From Candidatus Shapirobacteria bacterium (GTDB lineage: Bacteria > Patescibacteriota > Microgenomatia > UBA12405), in NCBI GenBank assembly GCA_041666965.1, contig JBAYFX010000002.1:8417-72416 (forward strand): a DNA stretch of 64,000 bases, in the 5' to 3' direction. Shown here one piece after another: positions 1-63,125 of the stretch. The translations under genes were made by a program, and so were the position numbers. Each line of letters starts with the position of its first letter. The first letter of the stretch is position 1. The notes under the pieces are model-generated. The model was not told the DNA's origin. It searched no databases and saw nothing but the letters and a program-made list of their open reading frames with translations.

Positions 1-1404
1 CGCCGCACCATCTACGAGCTCAAAATCAACTACCAACGAGCCCACATTTTGGAAGGTTTAAAAATTGCCCTCGATAATCTCGACGAAGTCATCAAAACCA
101 TTCGCGCCTCGGAAACCAGCGAAACCGCCAAAACCAATTTAATGTTAAAGTTCAATTTTACTGATCTTCAAGCCGACGCCATTTTAGAAATGCAGCTTCG
201 CCGCCTGGCCGCTCTTGAACGCCAAAAAATTGAAAACGAATACAACGAGGTTAACCAAACCATCAAAGACCTAACCGCCATTATTAAGGAACCAGACAGA
301 ATGATCAATGTCATTAGGGAAGAAAACAAGGAAGTAATGGACAAATTTAACGATCCACGTCTTACCAAAATCTACGCCCGGGAGCTCGAGGATTTCAGCG
401 AAGAAGACCTCATCCCCAAAGAGCCAACCGTCGTTTTGTTTACTAAAAGCGGTTACATTAAACGCGTCACCAAAGACACATACCGCAGTCAACACCGAGG
501 CGGTGTAGGAGTCGTAGGCATGGCGACCAAATCCGAAGATGAAGTCGATTGTATAATGTCCGTCACTACTCACGACAAATTGCTATTTTTCACCAACCGC
601 GGTCGAGTTTTTACCACCCGGGTCTGGGATGTCCCCGAGTCAACCCGTCAGAGCAGAGGAGTTGCCGCCGTCAATTTAGTCAATACTGTCCAAAGTGAAC
701 AAATTCAGGCTATCTTGTCCTTACCTGCGGGCAAAACTGTTGGTAATCAATACATCCTACTAGCTACCAAAAACGGCGTCGTTAAAAAAACTCTTCTTAG
801 TCGCTTTGAAAAAATTCGTCAAAACGGGCTTACTGCCATTAATCTTGACGAAGGCGATCATCTGGTTTGGGCCGAAACCACCACCGGGGACGATCAGGTA
901 TTCATAGTATCTCATCAAGGTAAATGTATCCGTTTCCATGAGTCCGATATTCGCCCCATGGGCCGCCATACCCGAGGGGTTCGGGGTATTACCCTAAAAA
1001 TTGGCGATTATTTAGTGTCTTTAGACGTTTTACCCTCAGTCCGCACTCCATCTTCCAAAAAAGACCCTCACTTTTACCATCTTCTAACTGTCACCGAAAA
1101 AGGCATTGGTAAACGTTCCGATGTTTTCCTCTATCCGCTTCAAAAACGCGGTGGTATGGGTGTAAAAGTATCCCAGTTAAGTGATAAAACCGGCAATGTG
1201 GCCACAGCCAAAGTCGTTACTGAAAACCATCTTCAGGCAATTCTTATCTCCCGCAAAGCTGTCACCATTAATTTACCTCTCAGCAACATTCCGGTCCTCA
1301 ACCGCAGTACCCAAGGGGTAATTTTAATGAGGCTCAAGGACGCCACCGACCAGGTTTCTACCATGACTGTAGTTGAAAAAGAAGTCGAGGAACCAATCAA
1401 GTAA
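1..1404 (+). CDS. gyrA: DNA gyrase subunit A, C-terminal portion (5' end lies outside window)
   Basis: Frame 1 is open from base 1 (RRTIYELKINYQRAHILEGL...). It shows the GyrA coiled-coil region followed by repeated beta-pinwheel blades. The ORF track lists it only from the internal Met at 49. Confidence 0.9.
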   Translation, partial: RRTIYELKINYQRAHILEGLKIALDNLDEVIKTIRASETSETAKTNLMLKFNFTDLQADAILEMQLRRLAALERQKIENEYNEVNQTIKDLTAIIKEPDRMINVIREENKEVMDKFNDPRLTKIYARELEDFSEEDLIPKEPTVVLFTKSGYIKRVTKDTYRSQHRGGVGVVGMATKSEDEVDCIMSVTTHDKLLFFTNRGRVFTTRVWDVPESTRQSRGVAAVNLVNTVQSEQIQAILSLPAGKTVGNQYILLATKNGVVKKTLLSRFEKIRQNGLTAINLDEGDHLVWAETTTGDDQVFIVSHQGKCIRFHESDIRPMGRHTRGVRGITLKIGDYLVSLDVLPSVRTPSSKKDPHFYHLLTVTEKGIGKRSDVFLYPLQKRGGMGVKVSQLSDKTGNVATAKVVTENHLQAILISRKAVTINLPLSNIPVLNRSTQGVILMRLKDATDQVSTMTVVEKEVEEPIK

Positions 1405-1720
1405 GCTAACATATCCTATATAATATTCTTCTAAAGTACTAGTAAAATAAACACGGATTTGGCAGTCTGGGTAGGGGAGTGCTAACAAGGCTAGATTTTT
1501 AGATTACCCCCATAAATAGGGTATAAATTACTCCTTCAGAAAAATGATAAATTTTACATCCTTTTCAAATGGTTATTACCAAACTTAGGCCAATATCCGC
1601 ATTATCCTTTACACACCTATAACTTATCAGTTTTTCTCCCTGTATTACAAATAGTATCGGCTACTAATTTTGTAAATCATTCACAAGAGGGTAGGGGAGT
1701 GTTGGTATACTACTCCAACT

Positions 1721-2326
1721 ATGCCCATCGAAACCATTGTTTTAGCTACCCGTAATCCCGGAAAAGTAATTCAATATCGGCAGGCACTAGAAAGCCTAGG
1801 TATAAACGTATTAGGTTTAACTGAATTAGGAATTAAAGGAAAACCAACCGAATCAGGCGATACCGCCGAAGCCAACGCCGCAATTAAAGGTCTCTTCTAT
1901 TCTGCTCTTACCCCCTATCCTGTTCTTACCGAAGATGAATCTCTGTTAGTTGATTTTCTACCGATCGAACTACAACCCGGTGTTCGTGTTCGCCGTATTA
2001 ATGGGGAAGATGAAGTCACCGATGACCAACTATTCCAGTATTGGAAAGAAATAGTTAGCCGCACACCTCCAAGTTTAAGAACAGGTCGTTGGCATATTGC
2101 CTATTGCTTAGCTACAGGAGGTCAAATCCTTGGCCAAACAGCCCGGGATGTTGAGGTTAAATTCTTCTATCCTCCTTCATCGGTTAGAATTCCCGGCTGG
2201 CCCCTAAGTAGTATTCAGGGTTCTACCGGCAAACCGTCAAGTGAGCGGACTCCAGAGGAAATTCAACAAAGAATTCAAGAAGATGGTCTATTAATTCGCC
2301 AAATCATACAAAAGTTAGTTAGTTAA
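1721..2326 (+). CDS. Ham1/RdgB-like non-canonical purine NTP pyrophosphatase (C-terminal half divergent)
   Basis: IVLATRNPGKVIQYRQAL and TEDESLLVDFL align with the Ham1 N-terminal and DDSGLEVD-type motifs. The protein is ~200 aa. Confidence 0.65.
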   Translation: MPIETIVLATRNPGKVIQYRQALESLGINVLGLTELGIKGKPTESGDTAEANAAIKGLFYSALTPYPVLTEDESLLVDFLPIELQPGVRVRRINGEDEVTDDQLFQYWKEIVSRTPPSLRTGRWHIAYCLATGGQILGQTARDVEVKFFYPPSSVRIPGWPLSSIQGSTGKPSSERTPEEIQQRIQEDGLLIRQIIQKLVS

Positions 2327-2351
2327 CCTTCGGCTAAATAGGGTAGGGGAG

Positions 2352-3302
2352 TCATCCTTCTTTTTTCTTAAAATGGAACCGGTCGTGAACTTCTTTAAGC
2401 CGAGCGTTAGTCACATGGGTATAAATTTGGGTGGTAGCAATATTTTTGTGCCCGAGTAGTTCCTGAACCGAGCGCAGGTCGGCCCCGTTAACTAACAGAT
2501 CAGTGGCCATTGAATGTCTGAGGGTGTGTGGTGTGGCGTCCACCGGCAATTTGGCCAACACTACATATTTTTTTACAATCCTCTGAATGGTACGCGCCCC
2601 AATTCTAACTTTTTTCTCGTCCACAATAATTTCGGTTAGTTTTATATTTCTAACAAAGAGGGGAGTCATCTTGTCCATTCGGCTCCTTAGGTACTCCTCT
2701 ACTTTTTGGGCCGATCTTTCCGACATAAATACCACCCGACTTCGTCCACCCTTACCAATCACTCCAAATTCGCGGGTTTTTAGGTTAACTTGGTCCCGGT
2801 TTAAGGCAACGAGTTCCGACACCCGTAAGCCCGACGAAAATAACAACTCCAAAATCGCCCTGTCCCGTTTGCCGTTAGTACTCGATGAAATTGGTTGGTT
2901 TAACAGTCGTTCTACCTGCTCTCCAGTTAAAAACTTCAACGAGTGGTCTCTAAACTTGGGCACATCAATTACTTCCGGCTTTAGGCATTCCACACCCTTT
3001 CGGGTCAGCCATTTTAAAAATGACCTTAAAGCAATTACATAATAAGCCTGCGTCGTCAAAATCATGTCTTGACCTTTGGTGCCTTTTTTTGTCGTCAGCC
3101 ACAGCCGCCATTCTTTAACATTTTTTTCATTTAAGCTCTTAATGGTCAGTGGATAATTTTTCGTCGCCATAAATGACTGTAGGTCATTTAGGTAATGCCG
3201 ATAGTTTCTAACGGTGAGGCGTGACGATCCTTTTTCAATACTCATATAGTCCAAGTACTTATTTATCCATCCCGACAGTTCATTTAAAGTCTCAACTTCC
3301 AT
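2352..3302 (-). CDS. xerC: Tyrosine site-specific recombinase XerC/XerD family
   Basis: C-terminal catalytic signature RHSMATDLLVNGADLRSVQELLGHKNIATTQIYTHV. The 316 aa length is typical of Xer recombinases. Confidence 0.88.
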   Translation of the reverse strand: MEVETLNELSGWINKYLDYMSIEKGSSRLTVRNYRHYLNDLQSFMATKNYPLTIKSLNEKNVKEWRLWLTTKKGTKGQDMILTTQAYYVIALRSFLKWLTRKGVECLKPEVIDVPKFRDHSLKFLTGEQVERLLNQPISSSTNGKRDRAILELLFSSGLRVSELVALNRDQVNLKTREFGVIGKGGRSRVVFMSERSAQKVEEYLRSRMDKMTPLFVRNIKLTEIIVDEKKVRIGARTIQRIVKKYVVLAKLPVDATPHTLRHSMATDLLVNGADLRSVQELLGHKNIATTQIYTHVTNARLKEVHDRFHFKKKEG

Positions 3303-3985
3303 AGCTAATTATATACTGTGAAGCTTATCTTGTGTTCTAGGGCCTTTGGTGAGGTCATACATATTTTGCCTTATTTACCGCTATTTATAAAATCCCCTTC
3401 ATAAGAGTAGTCAAGTGGAGGCTCTCAGGCTCAAAACCGGTTTTTGGCAGGCACCTCCTACAATAGGGGTAAAGGAGCCAAATATACTAGTCAACTCCAA
3501 TTATTTATTTGAAATTTATATTTTATTAATTATTTATTAATTAGTCAGAAACCTCCCTCCCCCCCTCGGAGAAGTACCTCATGTCGCAAAACATACATTG
3601 TGCGACGTTATACTTTAAGCCCCAAGAACAGTAGGGAACAAGTCTTTTCTCCACTTTCTTCACACTAAAATTAACTGATTAATATTTATCTAACAAAACA
3701 ATTACTGGGGTACCCTCTCTTCTCTTCTTACCCACTTCTCTCCAAATTCACATTTTGTAAGTTTTAGAGTTTTCCACAGAACTATATCATTGTATATCAC
3801 GTATGTGAAATATTTATAGGATATGTGAAAATATAATTATAGGACGTTGTATATTATAGGTCATACTACTTCCCTACCCTAGTCCCCTTGCCTAAAAATT
3901 GAGTACTTATTTATTATTTAAATTTATAAATAATACGAAATCCGTCTCTTGACGGAATAATTCAAAAAATATATTACTTCGGTTC

Positions 3986-4768
3986 CTACCAACTTACAGT
4001 CACGATCAAAGAGATTATTACGGCCACCAAAATCCACCCCAAACTCATAATTGATTTTTTAAACAATCTTTCCCGAATCGTCAGTTGTATCAGGCTTATT
4101 AATATGTATTGAAACGACACCATATACAAGGAACTCTTAAATACCCCCGTTGGCCAAAAAGACAGTACCATCGCCATTTGGGACATCATCCACACCGAAG
4201 CCAAAACATAAGACATAATTGGTAAGTCTTTACCATCATCCGGTAATTCAATTAGCACCGACCAAACAATGTAAGTAAAAATAAAAGGAGTTACCGCCAA
4301 AAATATCAGCATGTTTTGCCAAAACCCCAACCGGTACGAAAAAATAACGTCATATACTAAAAACGAAGCAAATAAGGTTACAACTACGCTTACCGTAAAC
4401 GCCGCCCGGTACAACGGCACAGTTTTATAACCCACCGCCACCATAAACACGTTTTCAATCAAATATATCGTATAGTTCACTCCCCCAAACAACAGCAATA
4501 TCGGAATATCCCACCACCAAGGCAATTCCAAAACAGAAATAAACATCGCCAGTCCAAAAAACCACATAATCGGCAATATAATCGCCGCCAAGCGACTTTT
4601 CCAATCTGAGTAATAAATCAATCCCAGACCGTACCAGGTTGAAAACACCGTCAACGCTAACCCTGTAAATACTCCATATAGTCTGGAATCATAGGGCAAT
4701 TCTACAAACAACAGAAAGCCTAATGCCTGGATTAAGGTTAAAAATAAAAATTTTGCCCGTTTATTCAT
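3986..4768 (-). CDS. Polytopic integral membrane protein, unknown function
   Basis: A 260-aa ORF that is strongly hydrophobic, with multiple predicted TM segments rich in W/Y/F. Confidence 0.5.
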   Translation of the reverse strand: MNKRAKFLFLTLIQALGFLLFVELPYDSRLYGVFTGLALTVFSTWYGLGLIYYSDWKSRLAAIILPIMWFFGLAMFISVLELPWWWDIPILLLFGGVNYTIYLIENVFMVAVGYKTVPLYRAAFTVSVVVTLFASFLVYDVIFSYRLGFWQNMLIFLAVTPFIFTYIVWSVLIELPDDGKDLPIMSYVLASVWMMSQMAMVLSFWPTGVFKSSLYMVSFQYILISLIQLTIRERLFKKSIMSLGWILVAVIISLIVTVSW

Positions 4769-8345: not shown

Positions 8346-8699
8346 TCAACTATGAAGTTTCAATTTTCTGACCGTAGTAGTTATTGGCACTCCAGTAAAA
8401 GGGCAATTATCCCTCCCCCCAGCTGACTCATAACCATCTATAGTAACCGCACCAAATCTATTGGTTAGCATTTCACAATTTGCTACTGCTTCGGAAGGAA
8501 CTGTTGTCAATAAAAGTTTCAATACTTCTTCGTACCCAAATGCCCGAATTTCTAAACTCACCCCTAAGCTACCCAAATCTCGTTTCAGTCTAACTTCAAC
8601 CCCAGACCTATTGTTAACAGCAGGGTTTAAAACATAGTCCGCCAACGGACAAAACGGCCAACAATTATACTTCCCAAAATCACCTTCGTGTCTTGACAT
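8346..8699 (-). CDS. Small Cys-containing hypothetical protein (paralog A)
   Basis: 117 aa. Shares CxxWCPL...CEML...GG..C spacing with the adjacent ORF 8790-9119. No family recognised. Confidence 0.4.
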   Translation of the reverse strand: MSRHEGDFGKYNCWPFCPLADYVLNPAVNNRSGVEVRLKRDLGSLGVSLEIRAFGYEEVLKLLLTTVPSEAVANCEMLTNRFGAVTIDGYESAGGRDNCPFTGVPITTTVRKLKLHS

Positions 8700-8789
8700 G
8701 TTTGTATTATATCAAACTATAACTTTCAATTCCGTCATCTCACACCCTACCCCGCTTTTTAAGTAGATTCACCAATCAGGTTTAGCTTC

Positions 8790-11551: not shown

Positions 11552-12313
11552 ATGACCCACGTTCTAATTCTTCTAATCTTACTCTTACCTTCTACAGTTT
11601 TTGCCCAGTCGCCACCTACTCCTACTTCTGACCCGTCTCTCACTCCTACTTCCGCACCTCGGGAAGCTATCGAAGACATTCAAAAAATTAGACAGGCTAT
11701 CCAGGAAAAAGTCAAAGAAAAACTCTCCGAAATTGGCCAGCCTACCAGTTTTAAAAAGGCCATCATTGGTCAAATTAGCCGACTTAATGTTCCCTCCAGT
11801 CTGGAAATCAGTTTCAATGGGGAAACCACTTCTACCTTACTGGACCCGGAAATTGTTTTTATCAATGCTAAAAAAAGTAAAAGTAATCTATCGACTCTCA
11901 AAGTTGGGGACCAAGTTTTAGCCCTCGGAGTCTACGACCCCATCACCCAGCAACTTACCGCCAAGCGCCTCATATCCTTTAATTACGAAAAGGATCTTTC
12001 ACCCCTGCCCCAAACCATTTACGGCACCATCACCGACATGTCCCAATCTGCCAACAGTGTCTTTTTGTCTCTAACTCCTCTAAACGATAAAAATCAGCAA
12101 TATCAAATTGTTACCGATACTACTACCAAATATCTAGATTCCGCTCTCAAGGCTCAAACCTCACTTAAGTTTGAGGTAGGCCAAAAAATAATCGCCATAG
12201 CTAGCAAAAGCGAAAAGTCCCAAACCAGCTGGAAAGCCCTAAAAATAGTACTCAAAACTACTCCTACCCCCGCCGCTCCCGCTCCCTCTCCTTCTCCCTC
12301 TCCCACCAATTAG
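11552..12313 (+). CDS. Secreted hypothetical protein with PT-rich linkers
   Basis: Cleavable signal peptide MTHVLILLILLLPSTVFAQS, PT-rich N-terminus and PAAPAPSPSPSP C-terminus. Starts 3 nt after the previous ORF. Confidence 0.5.
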   Translation: MTHVLILLILLLPSTVFAQSPPTPTSDPSLTPTSAPREAIEDIQKIRQAIQEKVKEKLSEIGQPTSFKKAIIGQISRLNVPSSLEISFNGETTSTLLDPEIVFINAKKSKSNLSTLKVGDQVLALGVYDPITQQLTAKRLISFNYEKDLSPLPQTIYGTITDMSQSANSVFLSLTPLNDKNQQYQIVTDTTTKYLDSALKAQTSLKFEVGQKIIAIASKSEKSQTSWKALKIVLKTTPTPAAPAPSPSPSPTN

Positions 12314-27700: not shown

Positions 27701-28075
27701 TCAGAATTCCAAATTGGAAAAGCCATGCTCAAGCCATTCCCGAGCTACCAATTTTACGTCAATTTTATTACACTTTGCTTCTTTTATTAACAGTGGTCCA
27801 CATATCACCACATCCCCCACTCTAAAAATCCCATCCATGTCCGGCTCTCTATTTTTAGTCGGAAAAGTTAACACTTGCGGCACATAACTCCTTCGTCGAT
27901 ATTCCTGATTTAGTTTTTTTGCCTTATACTCCCCTACCAGCCATAAGCCAACTTCTCCCCTCAATTTTTCAAACTTTTTCTTTTGGCACATTTGCTCAAT
28001 TTCACCTCGCCAATTTATCCGGTCAAACTTGTTTACCCACGAACCGCCTAAAATTACTGTTACGTTAGTTTCCAC
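27701..28075 (-). CDS. YbeY-like protein (His triad not evident)
   Basis: LNQEYRRRSYVPQVLTFP...GDVVICGPLLIKEA parallels the YbeY block LN.EYR.KD.PTDVLSFP...GDIVI, but the H..H.....H metal motif is absent. Confidence 0.4.
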   Translation of the reverse strand: METNVTVILGGSWVNKFDRINWRGEIEQMCQKKKFEKLRGEVGLWLVGEYKAKKLNQEYRRRSYVPQVLTFPTKNREPDMDGIFRVGDVVICGPLLIKEAKCNKIDVKLVAREWLEHGFSNLEF

Positions 28076-30858: not shown

Positions 30859-32580
30859 TTAATATTGTTGGTCTTGCCTCTCTTTTAATGTTTGAGCTAG
30901 CAAACTTAAGTCAGCCGACGACATTTGACAATCCCCGTCCATATCGGTTACCAGGGCATTACTGTCCTTTGGTACCGAACTCCTGGCTAAAGCCGCCGTC
31001 TTAACCACCGAATAATCAAGTCCATTACAAACACCGTCCGGACCCGATGAGTTCTTACCCACTACGTCGCAAGCCATATCCGGGTATGCGGTAAAGTCAT
31101 AAACCTGACTGGTTGTTGCCACAGTAGTTAAGCTAATTTCTCCCCCGGGTAAATTATAAAAGCTGTCCTGTTTATCCTTGGCGTACTTAACTTGTAAATG
31201 TCTTGGTCCTTTAATAAACACCGACAAACCGCTTGAACCGGTAAAGTCAGTCAAAGCCAACGAGCCTTTGTACACCCGTAGGTTACCGGCTACCAAACCG
31301 TCCGGAGTCGGAGTATGGTTATAAGTTTTCACCAAATCCCCCTTTCGAACCGTAATTACCACCGGCCAATTGGACGCACATTCATTATTGTTTTTTACAC
31401 CGGCGTAAGTAATCCGATAATTAAGTATTGGTGCGGCGGTTGTCTCAACTACGCATGATGTTCCCCCGGCCTCACACTCAGCCACGCTTAAATATTGGCC
31501 ACCGCTACTTTGACTACAAATATATTTACCAGTAGCTGTATTACATGTTTCTCGGTTGTATTTGGCTACAGCCACCTCACAGCCCGCATCCGCCTCACAA
31601 CCTTCCTTCGTGTTAAATGTCCCGTCAGCTACCTGAATACAAGTCCAAGCACCTGTGGCTGTGTTACATGAAGCCGCAGTTGTCCCGTGACCCCACTTGT
31701 TTATCTTCACACAGTTAGCATCGGCTGTTACACACTCCGCCTCAGTCGCAAAGTCAGCTCCACTGGCTACCAAATTACATGTATATTCTCCGACCTGAGT
31801 ATTACATCCGGTTCTGACATATCCTCCAACTTCAGACTCACAACCTTGGGTATTTTGACATTCCGCCTCAGTCGCAAATTCACCGTTGGCACTTTGCTCA
31901 CAAAACCATTTCCCAGTAGTTGTGTTACATCCTTCTGTCTTACTCCATTTGGTCACTCCTTGACTAAATGTCATTTCCACTCCGTTTACTACCCCGATTT
32001 CCAAATACAAATCAGTACTTCCTTCCACTGGGTTAAACCCTGTCACTTTCGACATATCCTTTACAATTTCAATATTTTCATTACCGCTGGCCAAGGCAGT
32101 AAACTCCACCACTCCCACCAACACCGTCCCCTCTCCCAATTGGGCTTTTGGTTTCTCGGATTTTATCTCAATATTGGCACATGTTTTACCCGCTTGTGCT
32201 CCCGCACCCTCTTCCAGTTGAGATACCATAATCATATTGAATTTGTCCCCTACCCGTACTTGCTCTGAAATATCTCCGGTTTCACTGGCCTCAATTGTCA
32301 CTTTGTTTCCAAAGCACATATATGTCTTAACATAATCCACCTTGGCCTTTTCCCCTTCCGCTCCCATGGCCTTAGTATCTACATATATTTGTATCGAAAA
32401 CTTATCACCAACACTTTTAGTAGTTGCTGAAGATACCAGTAACATATCCGTACCGGCAAAGGCAGCACTGCGTCTGTTGTCCTGGTTCCTGTTTACTAAA
32501 ACTAACGCAGCTACTAAGGCTATTGATAATAAAATCAATACCAAATAAGAGGTTGGGTTGGTTGTCGTTTTTTTTCTCAT
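30859..32580 (-). CDS. Secreted modular protein with an N-terminal cohesin-like domain, four Cys-rich 36-aa repeats and dockerin-like C-terminus
   Basis: TM anchor. Cohesin-like KFSIQIYVDTKAMGAEGEKAKVDY...GTVLVGVVEFTALASG. Four repeats of GCNTxxGxxxC...FxTxxEC...C. C-terminal DMDGDCQMSSADLSLLAQTL. Confidence 0.5.
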   Translation of the reverse strand: MRKKTTTNPTSYLVLILLSIALVAALVLVNRNQDNRRSAAFAGTDMLLVSSATTKSVGDKFSIQIYVDTKAMGAEGEKAKVDYVKTYMCFGNKVTIEASETGDISEQVRVGDKFNMIMVSQLEEGAGAQAGKTCANIEIKSEKPKAQLGEGTVLVGVVEFTALASGNENIEIVKDMSKVTGFNPVEGSTDLYLEIGVVNGVEMTFSQGVTKWSKTEGCNTTTGKWFCEQSANGEFATEAECQNTQGCESEVGGYVRTGCNTQVGEYTCNLVASGADFATEAECVTADANCVKINKWGHGTTAASCNTATGAWTCIQVADGTFNTKEGCEADAGCEVAVAKYNRETCNTATGKYICSQSSGGQYLSVAECEAGGTSCVVETTAAPILNYRITYAGVKNNNECASNWPVVITVRKGDLVKTYNHTPTPDGLVAGNLRVYKGSLALTDFTGSSGLSVFIKGPRHLQVKYAKDKQDSFYNLPGGEISLTTVATTSQVYDFTAYPDMACDVVGKNSSGPDGVCNGLDYSVVKTAALARSSVPKDSNALVTDMDGDCQMSSADLSLLAQTLKERQDQQY

Positions 32581-42216: not shown

Positions 42217-42408
42217 TCATGTTTTAACCTTGTTTTCCTCCGTTATGATCAGCCTGGCTTGAGGTAATTCTGGTTTAATCGGAACAATTACTAAACCATT
42301 TGTATCAACTCCTTTTCTCTTCCACCCTCCTAACGGTTCCCATGGTCCTTTTGGTATCTGAAATCCATTATCATTATCTAAAATTTTTTTATAATCATGC
42401 CTTCCCAT
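42217..42408 (-). CDS. Small hypothetical protein (63 aa)
   Basis: Short ORF between island genes. Low support. Confidence 0.25.
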   Translation of the reverse strand: MGRHDYKKILDNDNGFQIPKGPWEPLGGWKRKGVDTNGLVIVPIKPELPQARLIITEENKVKT

Positions 42409-50158: not shown

Positions 50159-50374
50159 TTATCCTATATTTCCATTCCTCTTATTATTTGTCTTTCTGTG
50201 CTTTACCTCTTCCCAATGTTTTAACGACTGTAAATCAGCACCGTCCACACTATATATTCCCAAATTCATCCGACAGCGCCAGCAAAGAGCCCACTCTTCA
50301 CCGTTTGCCAATTTTGCCACCACCTTAAGCGGTTTGTAATGTCTACACCCAGGACAAAATTCTAAAACCGCCAT
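50159..50374 (-). CDS. Zn-ribbon small protein (71 aa)
   Basis: CPGC...CWRC four-Cys arrangement with a basic tail. Confidence 0.4.
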   Translation of the reverse strand: MAVLEFCPGCRHYKPLKVVAKLANGEEWALCWRCRMNLGIYSVDGADLQSLKHWEEVKHRKTNNKRNGNIG

Positions 50375-50392
50375 AATTAATCATACTCTCCC

Positions 50393-50860
50393 CTACCCCT
50401 CAATCGTCCACAACCTTACTGTATTCCTACGGACTAAGTCACTAATTCCAAAACTCTCATCCGGGTCAACCTCTTTCCATTGCCGGGGTAAAAACACTCC
50501 AAAAGGCTGGGGCCACAAATATGCCCCCACCCAAAAAATAACCGGATCCTCCCGAGCGATTATATTTATTTCTGTCATTGACCAGGTTTTACTCATTAGA
50601 GCAATCTGTCTCAATTGAGGCCATATTCCCCCATCCACTCGATACTTATAACTTCCAGTTAAACTATATTTAAAACTCGGTTCTGCTACTTTTTGAACTG
50701 AAATCAAACTGGGACGGACTATTGGCACTTCCGTTATATTAATCCTCAATACCTGCCAAGGATAAACCTGCAGCACATCTCTTTTTTCCAACATCGGCGA
50801 ATATAACTCAAATAAATAAACTTTTAGTAAATAAATCAACCGACTTTGCTCTATACTCAT
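50393..50860 (-). CDS. Hypothetical protein (155 aa)
   Basis: ORF with no motif. The GGGGTAGGGGAGAGT motif lies at its 3' flank. Confidence 0.35.
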   Translation of the reverse strand: MSIEQSRLIYLLKVYLFELYSPMLEKRDVLQVYPWQVLRINITEVPIVRPSLISVQKVAEPSFKYSLTGSYKYRVDGGIWPQLRQIALMSKTWSMTEINIIAREDPVIFWVGAYLWPQPFGVFLPRQWKEVDPDESFGISDLVRRNTVRLWTIEG

Positions 50861-53007: not shown

Positions 53008-53412
53008 TTATCCCCTTGACACGTGTTATAAGACATCCTATATTTAATTATTAGTCATTAATATAGGATTATGTCAGAACGATTTACATATACACCCGAA
53101 GCAAGAGAAATTGCTCCCCGTTTCCAACCGGACGTAGATACTTTACCCCTGGAATTAACTCAAGCGATTACCTCGAGAGTAATCAATAAAATGCAACTTA
53201 CCAAACCTTTAAAATTTAATTAAATCAAATGGAAAAATCCCCCATCTTTTTTAAACAATTAAGTTCAGAACAATTAACTCTGGCTAAGTCTTCATTTCGA
53301 ACTACTATAGCCGAATTCGGGTCAATCACTCCCACCCCTACCCTCTCTACCCGCACAGGCAATAAAATCTAACCCCTACCAACTCATAATATTTTTTGTA
53401 TAATAGCCGCAT

Positions 53413-53658
53413 ATGACAAGAATTACCACTACTATAGAGTGTTGCCCGTCCGGTTATAGTGCTCCTAACCCCAATTGTGAAATGACACAAGCTGATGGGA
53501 CTAAATGTGAACATGGTTTTGGTAAAACCGTTGATTGCCCTGTGCGAAGGTTTGTTCCAAAACGAGGAAATTGCTTCGACCCAAACGTTAGTACTGCCCC
53601 CGGTCGACACTCAACTCCTGGTACACGCGTCAGTTCAGTTTCTAATTCCCATATATAA
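53413..53658 (+). CDS. Small Cys-rich hypothetical protein (81 aa)
   Basis: Preceded by TTTTTGTATAAT (an extended -10-like sequence) 8 nt before the ATG. Seven Cys including CC. No homology recognised. Confidence 0.3.
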   Translation: MTRITTTIECCPSGYSAPNPNCEMTQADGTKCEHGFGKTVDCPVRRFVPKRGNCFDPNVSTAPGRHSTPGTRVSSVSNSHI

Positions 53659-55739: not shown

Positions 55740-55777
55740 TGTCCTCTATCATATCACTCCCCGTCAAGTCACTGCTT

Positions 55778-62222: not shown

Positions 62223-63125
62223 ATGTTTAGACTAATCTTTTTTGGCTCTTTTGGTCAATACTCCCAACTCACTCTGGAAAAACTTCTTACCCACCCCGAA
62301 ATTAATGTGGTCACAGTCGTCACCTCCCCTCCCCGGCCCGGTAACCGCGGTCAAATTACTAAAAATCCGGTTGAAGTTTTCGCCCAATCCCAAAGTATTC
62401 CCGTCCTGACTCCGTCTACGCTCAAAGACAATCTTCCTCCACTTCCCCCAGCCGATTTCATTTTAGTGGCTGGCTATGGGTTATTAATCCCCGCGTCTTG
62501 GTTATCTCACCCCCGTTACCTGGCTTTAAATGCCCACCCGTCCCTTTTGCCGCTTTATCCCGGACGTTTCCCTGTTGAATGGGCCCTGCTAACCGGGCAA
62601 AAAGAAGTTGGCTTGAGCATAATTTCCATGAACTCCGGCTTTGACTCAGGCGCCCTTGTTTATCAAAAATCACTCGAGGTCTCTCCATCCGATACCCGCC
62701 ACACCCTTTATTTGGAACTTTATGCTCAAACTGGCTTAATTGCACCCGATTTGTTTACCCAACTGAGTAATTCCCTGTTAACACCCTGGTCTCAGCCCAA
62801 CCTACCCACCTTCTATGCCCGAGGTCTTACCCGTGATGACGGATTTATTCCTTTTGATATTTTTCTTAGCTTTGCCAACACTAACCCGATTCCTTCCACC
62901 CCCTGGCCTCTGCTTGAAGAAATTAACCTCCATCTTCCCTCCCCCATCAATCCCCACACCTTAATTAGTCGCATGCAGCTAGCCCTCCAACCCTGGCCAG
63001 GTTTATGGACCAAAACACCTACCGGCATCCGGCTTAAGATCACCCAACTTTCGCCCCTTATGGTTCAGCCTGAAAGCAAGCTTCCTACCCCCTGGACACA
63101 CATAAAAAATCTCCATACTAATTAG
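62223..63125 (+). CDS. fmt: Methionyl-tRNA formyltransferase
   Basis: N-terminal IFFGSFGQYSQLTLEKLL and the LNAHPSLLPLYPG (SLLP) formyltransferase motif. Divergent from def. Confidence 0.8.
   Translation: MFRLIFFGSFGQYSQLTLEKLLTHPEINVVTVVTSPPRPGNRGQITKNPVEVFAQSQSIPVLTPSTLKDNLPPLPPADFILVAGYGLLIPASWLSHPRYLALNAHPSLLPLYPGRFPVEWALLTGQKEVGLSIISMNSGFDSGALVYQKSLEVSPSDTRHTLYLELYAQTGLIAPDLFTQLSNSLLTPWSQPNLPTFYARGLTRDDGFIPFDIFLSFANTNPIPSTPWPLLEEINLHLPSPINPHTLISRMQLALQPWPGLWTKTPTGIRLKITQLSPLMVQPESKLPTPWTHIKNLHTN

Follow-up and report, generated by a model that had tools for sequence, protein, structure and literature searches.

A clade-specific G-rich 13-mer at transcription-unit boundaries of a Shapirobacteria genome: a candidate protein-binding control site

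The operators of small regulons, such as the LexA and Fur boxes, are the described systems that most resemble the element reported here: they, too, are short, intergenic and kept at orthologous promoters across species, take up variable positions near or over the −10 box and occur in several copies per genome, sometimes paired. The present element differs from them in being non-palindromic and strongly G-rich, in its confinement to one small clade of Shapirobacteria and in having two copies with no downstream gene. Integron attC and attI sites and the dif-flanked elements that exploit Xer recombinases share with it a recombinase beside a variable slot, a repeat at gene boundaries and a break of homology at the repeat, whereas the repeat described here is an asymmetric 13 bp with neither arms nor fold, some junctions lack it and some copies lie far from recombinases. 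More partial likenesses, taken up below, link it to KOPS and to CIRCE, the operator of HrcA (TTAGCACTC-N9-GAGTGCTAA). Almost nothing is known about gene regulation and genome plasticity in the CPR/Patescibacteria, because most of their members are uncultured. Being strictly conserved and adjacent to leaderless promoters, the 13-mer offers a handle for finding its binding protein, and the gyrA–xer slot is a defined hotspot, in which single-gene differences between close relatives break off exactly at the motif. Should the 13-mer be an operator, its targets would form one of the first candidate regulons in Microgenomates; should it be a recombination site, it would represent a new kind of cassette system; and if it were neither, it would be an ordinary lineage-specific cis-element.

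The window, that is, the whole 64-kb stretch of DNA analysed here, comes from a chromosomal contig of a Candidatus Shapirobacteria MAG (an uncultured CPR bacterium) and contains a G-rich 13-mer, GGGTAGGGGAGTG, which recurs between genes above chance level. With one mismatch at most, it is present in four copies versus 0.15 expected, a number reached in none of 100 dinucleotide shuffles; allowing two mismatches yields 13 matches (2.77 expected), and the core GGGTAGGGG is found seven times (1.21 expected). All four copies with up to one mismatch are co-oriented with the local genes and lie in the non-coding ~9% of the window, which bears out the initial annotation of a non-random, G-rich, intergenic and dispersed motif. 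The top-enriched 8-mer of the ~5.9 kb of intergenic DNA is GGGTAGGG (6 occurrences versus 0.07 expected), the core common to every copy of the motif, and six of its nine occurrences are intergenic, even though intergenic DNA accounts for only ~9% of the window. The density amounts to ~1 copy per 16 kb, and the copies are strongly biased in orientation. The extended consensus reads (T)AGGGTAGGGGAGT(G/C), and similarity between copies spans 13–16 nt and no further. The earlier description of all copies as intergenic holds, with small overlaps at 2341 (the xer stop codon) and 50386 (the TAG stop of a 155-aa ORF); core-only copies are found within genes as well, at 32247 and 43583; a near-copy at 27927 lies within a ybeY-like ORF. 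Its plus-strand positions, starting at 1469, 1689 and 2341, stand, whereas the minus-strand 17-mer is located at 53327–53343 rather than at 53338–53354. In all, ~10 independent copies were examined, none of them in a complete genome.

Comparison with related genomes shows the motif to be specific to one small clade of Shapirobacteria. The core GGGTAGGGG is absent from ~690 kb of sequence from 74 loci of more distant Microgenomates, a control set drawn from a metagenome search with a Ham1 alignment and made up of relatives no more than 57% identical; no exact copy of the motif was found in the relative L082, and a GyrA search of genome contigs returned only matches of ~40% identity. Orthologous copies are retained in the sister species (~84% nucleotide identity) and in a third relative, L003 (Ham1 70% identical), and conservation at orthologous spacers, which the initial annotation had proposed as a check, was found at three loci. 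The copy preceding Ham1 is identical in L003 in spite of the 70% identity of Ham1 itself and of different genes upstream; the same GTG variant is present in both genomes, the gap between motif and ATG is 19 nt in the window versus 22 nt in L003, and the region upstream of the motif is a 285-nt spacer in the window versus a GNAT gene in L003. The window spacer was considered as a remnant of a GNAT pseudogene and rejected, because, apart from the motifs, it shares no homology with the GNAT gene of L003. The second locus is the copy GGGTAGGGGAGAG at 50386–50398 on the minus strand (one mismatch at most), the TAG of which serves as the stop of the 155-aa ORF upstream and which is followed directly by TATGAT (50385–50380) and, after 5 nt, by the ATG of a 71-aa Zn-ribbon ORF (50159–50374); in L079 and L083 this copy is identical and embedded in a 47-nt perfect block, whereas the Zn-ribbon ORF downstream of the block is only 32% identical. 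The third is the motif-like GGGTAGGGAAGTA at 3867–3879 on the minus strand, at the start of the conserved, non-coding leader of xer and 2 nt upstream of a −35/−10 pair (ATGACC-17-TATAAT), where the sister species has GGGTAGGGAAGTG and L082 a G-box, GGGGGTAGACGGGGAGCAGGGAAGTG. This last copy corresponds to a weaker relative previously placed at 3876–3890 and is kept in the sister species; the other weaker relative, given as 8738–8750 and read here as GGGTAGGGTGTGA at 8740–8752, probably arose by chance, judging from its lack of conservation in the sister species. The orthologous sites before Ham1 (L003), before the Zn-ribbon ORF (L079/L083) and at the xer leader (sister species) are under purifying selection. 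The shuffles and the conserved orthologous copies together rule out chance as the source of the enrichment.

The conserved copies share a promoter context. A TATAAT-like hexamer lies 4–10 nt 5′ of the start codon in 24 of 69 genes of the window, with a peak at 5 nt, and the promoters of Ham1 relatives abut the start codon likewise; with the −10 box only 5–7 nt before the ATG, the mRNAs of this organism would therefore be leaderless. The conserved copies are found 0–25 nt 5′ of such leaderless −10 boxes, namely those of Ham1, GNAT, the small Zn-ribbon ORF and the xer leader, and the distances from motif end to −10 hexamer among all copies are 0, 4, 6, 13, ~25 and ~47 nt. Since this distance varies from 0 to 47 nt, instead of keeping the fixed 16–18 nt of a sigma-70-type −35 element, the motif is not a core promoter element, in agreement with the earlier remark that it is not simply a promoter box. 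As promoters lie directly against the start codons, little room is left between one unit's end and the leaderless promoter that follows; the motif occupies this interval, and the division into 5′ and 3′ locations that had been drawn between copies largely dissolves.

Our preferred reading, to which we assign a probability of about 40%, is that the 13-mer is an operator-like protein-binding site at transcription-unit boundaries, the repeated copies of which also mediate gene gain and loss. A sequence-specific protein would recognize the 13-mer as a clade-specific cis-acting DNA element, and the operator would sit directly 5′ of the −10 boxes of a few leaderless genes, with Ham1, the GNAT acetyltransferase, the small Zn-ribbon ORF, the xer leader and, in the sister species, a ferredoxin gene that has the motif upstream as the proposed target set, the transcription of which would be controlled by the bound protein. 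The initial annotation had listed a protein-binding site among its options, and this remains the best reading, with binding itself predicted; of the roles weighed, that of a protein-binding control site is the most likely. It draws on the enrichment, the confinement to one clade, the conserved orthologous sites, the placement beside leaderless promoters and the lack of any significant RNA fold, terminator pattern or Rfam match at the motif. Recognition at the DNA level would fit, because a reverse core copy (TGGTAGGGGTTAG at 53369–53381 on the minus strand, reading CCCCTACCA on the plus strand) occupies the −35 position of a leaderless promoter, 17 nt 5′ of the TATAAT of an 81-aa ORF (53410–53655), and is retained in the sister species. 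The motif also travels with its downstream gene, as Ham1 carries a copy both in the window and in L003. Two perfect or near-perfect copies speak against an operator, as neither has a gene that it could control: M1 is in the hairpin loop that follows gyrA, and M3 separates the convergent Ham1 and xer genes. So does a copy of the sister species, L085 20216–20228, which is antisense to both of its neighbours, and so does the 0–47 nt spread to the −10 box, which is unusual for a single mode of regulation. No palindromy was detected in the motif, no candidate binding protein was identified and no common functional theme is obvious among the motif-associated genes.

The three plus-strand copies are clustered between gyrA and xer. 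M1, an exact copy of GGGTAGGGGAGTG at 1469–1481, lies 65 nt past the gyrA stop; it falls in the loop and the 3′ arm of a CIRCE-like hairpin, the conserved inverted repeat TTGGCAGTC-N9-GAGTGCTAA at 1459–1485 of the same strand, which matches 16 of 18 consensus positions of the HrcA operator (0.00 expected) and is retained as a hairpin in L084 and L082. M1 itself is specific to the window lineage, the sister species reading AGAGTGAGTGTTTG at this place; hairpin and motif are separate elements, because in the sister species the hairpin is retained although the motif is missing. The likeness to CIRCE is limited to M1, the other copies having no partner arm, and no chaperone gene was found among the scanned ORFs of the window (several short ORFs were left out). 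M2, likewise an exact GGGTAGGGGAGTG, at 1689–1701, is the final conserved element of the gyrA spacer and is located 4 nt 5′ of the Ham1 −10 hexamer TATACT (1706–1711; preceded by TGg, as in an extended −10, and followed by the ATG 9 nt later) and 19 nt 5′ of the ATG of the gene for a Ham1/RdgB-like non-canonical NTP pyrophosphatase (1721–2326, plus strand). M3, GGGTAGGGGAGTC at 2341–2353, follows 14 nt past the Ham1 stop, so that Ham1 lies between direct copies, and overlaps the stop codon of the convergent xer gene (2352–3302, minus strand), which encodes a XerC/XerD-type tyrosine recombinase (identity: 95% to the sister species, 62% to L082) and adjoins the variable slot.

The content of this slot differs across four relatives: it is empty in L082, holds GNAT in L084, L085 and L086, both GNAT and Ham1 in L003 and Ham1 alone in the window, Ham1 being missing from the slot of the sister species and L082. 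In the window the motif flanks Ham1 on either side; in relatives it precedes both GNAT and Ham1. Homology between window and sister species runs at 87–97% through the last base of GGGTAGGGGAGT and ends there, right after the M2 orthologue, which in L084, L085 and L086 stands before GNAT. M2 bears the GTG variant seen before Ham1 in L003, and M3 carries on its right the flank AGTCATC..., the same as that of the copy resident in the sister species and of the xer end in L003, a pattern around Ham1 as expected of a crossover inside the motif. Together with the tyrosine recombinase gene abutting the slot and the inverted copies at 2339–2352 and 3868–3881 that bracket xer and its leader, this invites the reading that a site-specific recombination or attachment site next to xer has the motif as its core, and that GNAT and Ham1 cassettes were inserted and excised there. 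We regard this as unlikely, in view of several observations. The last slot gene meets xer without an intact motif in both the sister species and L003, where the junction (examined in L084 and L003) lacks the motif or has it decayed to TAGTCATC; no recombinase lies beside the copies at 50386, 3867 and L085 18396 and 20221; and xer and its synteny are kept despite the empty slot of L082, as for a housekeeping Xer. No inverted repeat was found at or around the copies, unlike the inverted arms of dif, attC and other tyrosine-recombinase sites, and the vicinity of xer yielded no match to a Bacillus-type dif or the generic ATAA-N6-TTATGT. An arrangement M-GNAT-M-Ham1-M, from which genes were lost differentially by ordinary deletion between direct repeats of 13–16 bp, explains the pattern equally; L003, the relative that carries both genes, is the more distant one by xer and Ham1 identity. 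It is more doubtful still, and in our estimate improbable, that the 13-mer is the crossover core of an undescribed, integron-like but structurally different CPR cassette system, in which single leaderless genes (GNAT, Ham1) would enter and leave at an asymmetric 13-bp site beside the 3′ end of the Xer-type recombinase gene, with the other copies as secondary sites. In NCBIfam searches the full-length xer protein scores 246 bits as XerD and 244 bits as XerC, versus 108 bits against the integron-integrase model with its cut-off of 265, and so scores as a XerC/D rather than an IntI. It is the 3′ end of the xer gene that is turned toward the slot. Under the operator-like reading, the same copies, because they share sequence, would serve as short direct repeats where the genes of the gyrA–xer slot were gained or lost, as a secondary consequence.

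Because all intergenic copies but two also lie 0–107 nt 3′ of a co-oriented unit, a role at the 3′ end explains their positions about equally well. The distances past the upstream unit are 0 nt for the 155-aa ORF (its stop being inside the motif), 3 nt for the L003 GNAT, 5 nt for the L085 Peptidase_S51 gene, 14 nt for Ham1, 65 nt for gyrA and 107 nt for a DUF5656 gene. Accordingly, the motif could be a 3′-end or boundary signal of the upstream unit, involved in factor-dependent termination, pausing or stabilization through the non-template strand or the RNA and read co-directionally. Such a signal would account for M1 and M3, which an operator does not, and the highly conserved gyrA spacer terminates exactly with the motif; moreover, the 13-mer would fit the G(−10)/Y(−1)/G(+1) pattern of elemental pauses and may loosely resemble the ops element. 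Yet no intrinsic terminator, consisting of a GC-rich hairpin and a U-tract, was found at any copy, although ordinary intrinsic terminators are present elsewhere in the window (e.g., before 13364 and at 3956–3941), and the 3867 copy lies past an intrinsic terminator. When seven motif contexts were folded as RNA, the z-scores ranged from −1.15 to +2.05, none significant; no Rfam match was obtained for 1300–4100 at E ≤1; and in the consensus fold of the three species only the CIRCE-like hairpin is paired, not the motif. The link to a particular upstream gene is not kept either: the motif follows GNAT in L003, where the sister species lacks it, and follows Ham1 in the window but not in L003. The conserved 53369 core is antisense to the local genes. 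We know of no sequence-specific termination factor of such a kind in bacteria, and on balance consider a 3′-end signal somewhat unlikely.

The orientation of the copies raises the prospect of a polar chromosome-organizing sequence, either KOPS-like and orienting FtsK or a Ter-like fork trap, directed toward a dif or terminus near xer. The 8 bases of the core, GGGTAGGG, agree with the KOPS consensus of E. coli, GGGNAGGG, which may not be that of this lineage, and copies point toward xer from both sides: in the window, matches to GGGNAGGG to the left of xer are all on the plus strand (3/3) and those to the right all on the minus strand (25/25), while the 10 kb beyond xer in L085 contain five matches (four of them GGGTAGGG), every one on the G-poor strand, with ~0.09 expected by our own composition-based estimate. 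Gene orientation, too, converges at xer. Nevertheless, this reading is very unlikely. The GC skew is very strong; at xer it drops in the window, L082 and L085 without changing sign, so that there is no evidence of a terminus at xer. The G-richness of the minus strand accounts for much of the excess on that strand, and co-orientation with genes explains the orientation equally. Unlike KOPS, GGGTAGGG is concentrated in intergenic DNA (the six of nine occurrences noted above), the positions under selection number 13 rather than 8, and no dif-like site was found near xer. An AT-only 9+6+9 palindrome at 3912–3935 is not significant.

The most improbable reading that we weighed is that the motif is a G-quadruplex element, a DNA-uptake sequence, an extended Shine–Dalgarno sequence or a by-product of chance in G-rich DNA, the latter being already dealt with by the shuffles and the orthologous copies. 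G-richness would suit a quadruplex, as had been suggested initially, but the canonical pattern of four tracts of at least 3 G with loops of 1–7 nt contrasts with two tracts in the copies at 1469, 1689, 2341, 3867 and 50386; four are reached solely at 53331–53352 on the minus strand, where the degenerate 17-mer GGGTAGGGGTGGGAGTG (53327–53343), partly kept in the sister species, combines with GGGTAGAGA upstream. The window encodes DprA and has core copies inside genes, as might suit DNA uptake, but uptake sequences (DUS/USS) need ~1 copy per kb in both orientations and in coding as well as non-coding DNA, as opposed to four co-oriented, intergenic copies in 64 kb. The GGGGAG within the motif resembles a Shine–Dalgarno sequence and lies 13 nt before the Zn-ribbon ATG, but 21 nt before that of Ham1, with −10 hexamers in between and genes that look leaderless, rather than placing a GGAG core 5–10 nt upstream of a leadered start. 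The proposal of a small dispersed repeat, in the sense of REP or MITE, is not supported: such repeats would show a unit that is palindromic or folded and homologous past a short core, or terminal inverted repeats with target duplications, whereas similarity is confined to 13–16 nt with no significant secondary structure.

Mimicry of 23S rRNA was also considered: the first 11 nt of the motif equal E. coli 23S GGGTAGGGGAGCGTTC, the comparison covering the E. coli rRNA, and the match is treated as a coincidence because it has no paired partner. Text searches of the literature for the motif returned unrelated eukaryotic papers only, and those for CPR promoter motifs nothing beyond one general promoter paper. 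In the spacer upstream of topA, GGGGAGTG, equal to the 3′ half of the motif, occurs at 55755–55762 on the minus strand, 1 nt 5′ of TATGAT; this 38-nt spacer is shared with the sister species at 100% identity, and the kinship of GGGGAGTG to the full motif is uncertain. Finally, an apparent copy inside the GNAT gene was set aside as largely coding sequence, because it encodes the acetyl-CoA motif RGRGVG and the sister species differs there by a synonymous change (GGC instead of GGT).

The motif, a 13-base G-rich word, occurs in the window as exact copies of GGGTAGGGGAGTG at 1469(+) and 1689(+) and with one mismatch at 2341(+) and 50386(−); the first three copies (1469–1481, 1689–1701 and 2341–2353) are referred to as M1, M2 and M3. 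Four copies with at most one mismatch were observed against 0.15 expected, 13 with at most two mismatches against 2.77, and seven copies of the core GGGTAGGGG against 1.21; none of the 100 shuffles per count reached the observed number for the motif or the core. The top 8-mer of the window intergenic DNA (~5.9 kb) is GGGTAGGG (6 observed versus 0.07 expected), and the likeness among the copies is confined to 13–16 nt. Two positions in the initial annotation were off by ~10 nt (corrected, 53327–53343 and 3867–3879), and a relative that it listed at 8740 is probably a chance match, not being conserved in the sister species. The surrounding DNA is chromosomal, from a Candidatus Shapirobacteria MAG (CPR, Microgenomates) with a window GC content of ~43%, and carries ordinary housekeeping genes, namely, gyrA, xer and those for YebC, DnaB, HisRS, L31, RF, CysRS, RecR, DnaX, S2, EF-Ts, RRF, MreB, PBP2, DprA, TopA and a VirD4-like ATPase. 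Its Ham1 protein has a 100% identical counterpart in NCBI, JGI and ENA, encoded on a 72.7-kb contig.

A hexamer matching TATAAT in at least five of six positions lies 4–10 nt before the start codon in 24 of the 69 window genes (for instance, 2352–3302, 8346–8699, 42217–42408 and 62223–63125), its distance peaking sharply at 5 nt (13 genes), and often with TGn ahead of it (TGnTATAAT). The same promoter-abutting-start arrangement is found at genes for the Ham1/RdgB-like NTP pyrophosphatase (Ham1) in distant Microgenomates. Because promoters abut start codons, first genes would as a rule make leaderless mRNAs, and the region upstream of the −10 box serves both as 5′ flank to one unit and as 3′ flank to the preceding one, which mostly removes the contrast between 5′ and 3′ copies drawn in the initial annotation. 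The distance from motif to −10 hexamer is 0 nt at a small Zn-ribbon ORF, 4 nt at the window Ham1, 6 nt at Ham1 of the relative L003, 13 nt at the GNAT gene of the sister species, ~25 nt at the promoter of the xer leader, where the −35 hexamer lies 2 nt after the motif, and ~47 nt at a ferredoxin gene in the sister-species locus L085. One core copy in reverse orientation, CCCCTACCA, precedes the TATAAT of a leaderless 81-aa ORF by 17 nt and is kept in the sister species.

The relatives compared were L003 (JGI, 1.1 kb; Ham1 70% and xer C-terminus ~85% identical, the latter by eye), the sister species (~84% nucleotide identity; TopA and Xer each 95%; loci L079 and L083 around topA, and L084, L085 and L086 around xer), L082 (GyrA C-terminal domain 65%, Xer 62%) and 74 more distant Microgenomates loci (~690 kb) carrying Ham1 at ≤57% identity. 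At orthologous spacers, the motif is kept between species at three loci, namely, Ham1, the Zn-ribbon ORF and the xer leader. Upstream of Ham1, L003 carries an identical GGGTAGGGGAGTG, with TATAAT 6 nt after it and the ATG a further 10 nt beyond that hexamer; the copy before the Zn-ribbon ORF sits within a 47-nt block identical in the sister-species topA-region loci L079 and L083; and before the xer leader, the sister species has GGGTAGGGAAGTG in place of the window copy and L082 has a G-box, GGGGGTAGACGGGGAGCAGGGAAGTG. The core is absent from the 74 distant loci and no exact motif copy is present in L082, so that the motif is restricted to a narrow clade. It is a lineage-specific conserved intergenic cis-element, a known kind of element, although a text search of the literature returned nothing relevant and the motif itself is undescribed there. 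The conserved copies are best fitted by a promoter-linked, putatively protein-bound operator, to which we assign a probability of roughly 0.4. This reading would account for the motif accompanying Ham1 in two differing neighbourhoods and leaves M1, M3 and an antisense copy in L085 unexplained.

Those three copies are accounted for if the motif is a 3′-end signal, a possible but rather doubtful reading: the motif contexts yielded no significant RNA fold or terminator pattern and 1300–4100 no Rfam hit, leaving it without any structural basis, the motif is not retained after the same gene across genomes, and the reverse-oriented promoter copy fits poorly. M1 and M3 are not present in the sister species. 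M1 lies within a hairpin, in its loop and 3′ arm, and both the sister species and L082 retain this structure without the motif. This inverted repeat, 3′ of gyrA (1459–1485), matches the CIRCE/HrcA operator, TTGGCAGTC-N9-GAGTGCTAA, at 16 of 18 positions and is conserved in three species (L084, ~11605–11631(−); L082, ~11818–11844); no chaperone gene was found near it.

What is unusual about the motif is that it lies exactly at the breakpoints of a slot of variable gene content, flanked by gyrA and the convergent xer; the latter encodes a XerC/XerD-type tyrosine recombinase. The slot (window 1405–2351; sister-species locus L084 10952–11688; L003; L082 11747–11971) differs in content among close relatives: a 225-nt spacer alone in L082, spacer-motif-GNAT in the sister species, GNAT-motif-Ham1 in L003 and spacer-M2-Ham1-M3 in the window. 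The 285-nt spacer is 87% identical overall between the window and the sister species, and homology ends exactly after GGGTAGGGGAGT, to be followed by the Ham1 or the GNAT promoter, respectively. The M3 copy and its flank (GGGTAGGGGAGTCATCC...) match both the resident copy and flank of the sister species (GGGTAGGGGAGTCATCG...) and the xer end of L003 (TAGTCATC), and a GTG variant is common to M2 and the L003 Ham1 copy. The pattern would fit either a crossover inside the motif or differential loss, by direct-repeat deletion, from an ancestral motif-GNAT-motif-Ham1-motif array; L003, the more distant by xer and Ham1 identity, has both genes, which favours loss. A recombination core would explain the slot breakpoints and flanking repeats; nevertheless, it is unlikely, lacking the architecture of known sites and leaving copies elsewhere unexplained. 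No inverted repeat was found at the copies and no dif-like site near xer. A motif-like stretch within GNAT was rejected as a copy: it encodes RGRGVG and a synonymous site varies between species. The 3′ half of the spacer (~1570–1688), ~97% identical to the sister species by eye versus ~84% genome-wide, has no ORF or Rfam hit; it is a possible small RNA, or else a region with a regulatory or recombination role.

Left of xer, every copy is on the plus strand, and right of it, every copy is on the minus strand; in L085, the G-poor strand carries four GGGTAGGG (expected ~0.02, a composition estimate) in the 10 kb past xer, where the G-rich strand has none. This polarity and the fit of the core to GGGNAGGG, the E. 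coli KOPS consensus, which may not be that of this lineage, resemble KOPS, a reading we regard as improbable. GC skew weakens at xer and never changes sign in three genomes (window, L082 and L085), so that a terminus there is unsupported, and convergent gene direction would account for the orientation equally well. The window minus strand is strongly G-rich (skew −0.3 to −0.5), with weaker skew at 1–3300 and 12–17 kb. Over the window, L082 and L085, the absolute skew is very strong (0.3–0.5) and shared by genes of the other strand, and it falls to ~0.1 in the gyrB-gyrA block and at 12–17 kb. The ~560-nt non-coding leader upstream of xer, 3303–3866(−), has no Rfam family and is conserved as far as L082, including a promoter (TTCACA-17-TGaTATAGT, 3809–3781), a hairpin (GTCGCA-N12-TGCGAC) and a 40-nt block directly 5′ of the xer start. 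Between the 3867 copy and an intrinsic terminator (3956–3941) lies a perfect AT-only palindrome, TATTATTTA-N6-TAAATAATA (3912–3935), dif-like in geometry and statistically unremarkable for AT-rich DNA.

A G-quadruplex element, an uptake sequence, a Shine–Dalgarno sequence or chance are, even jointly, very improbable. Among motif copies, the four-tract G-quadruplex pattern is limited to the canonical GGGTAGAGAGGGTAGGGGTGGG at 53331–53352(−); six more such patterns lie at ~7.6 kb and 43–49 kb, mostly inside G-rich ORFs. Motif positions 1–11, GGGTAGGGGAG, exactly match an 11-nt stretch in the 23S rRNA of E. coli (GGGTAGGGGAGCGTTC; checked in 5426 genomes), probably by coincidence. The gyrA gene seems to break assemblies: in L082 (9178–11746), it is split into two ORF calls (284 and 581 aa), many GyrA homologues of the group are partial and come from short contigs, and the start of the window, too, falls within gyrA. 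The 71-aa Cys-rich Zn-ribbon-like ORF, 50159–50374(−), is hypervariable between the window and the sister species (32% amino-acid and 22–55% nucleotide identity), with flanks 85–100% identical on both sides. Finally, the window and the sister species agree fully (100% identity) in the 38-nt spacer upstream of topA, 55740–55777(−), TTGACGGGGAGTGATATGATAGAGGACA, whereas the flanking coding DNA diverges.
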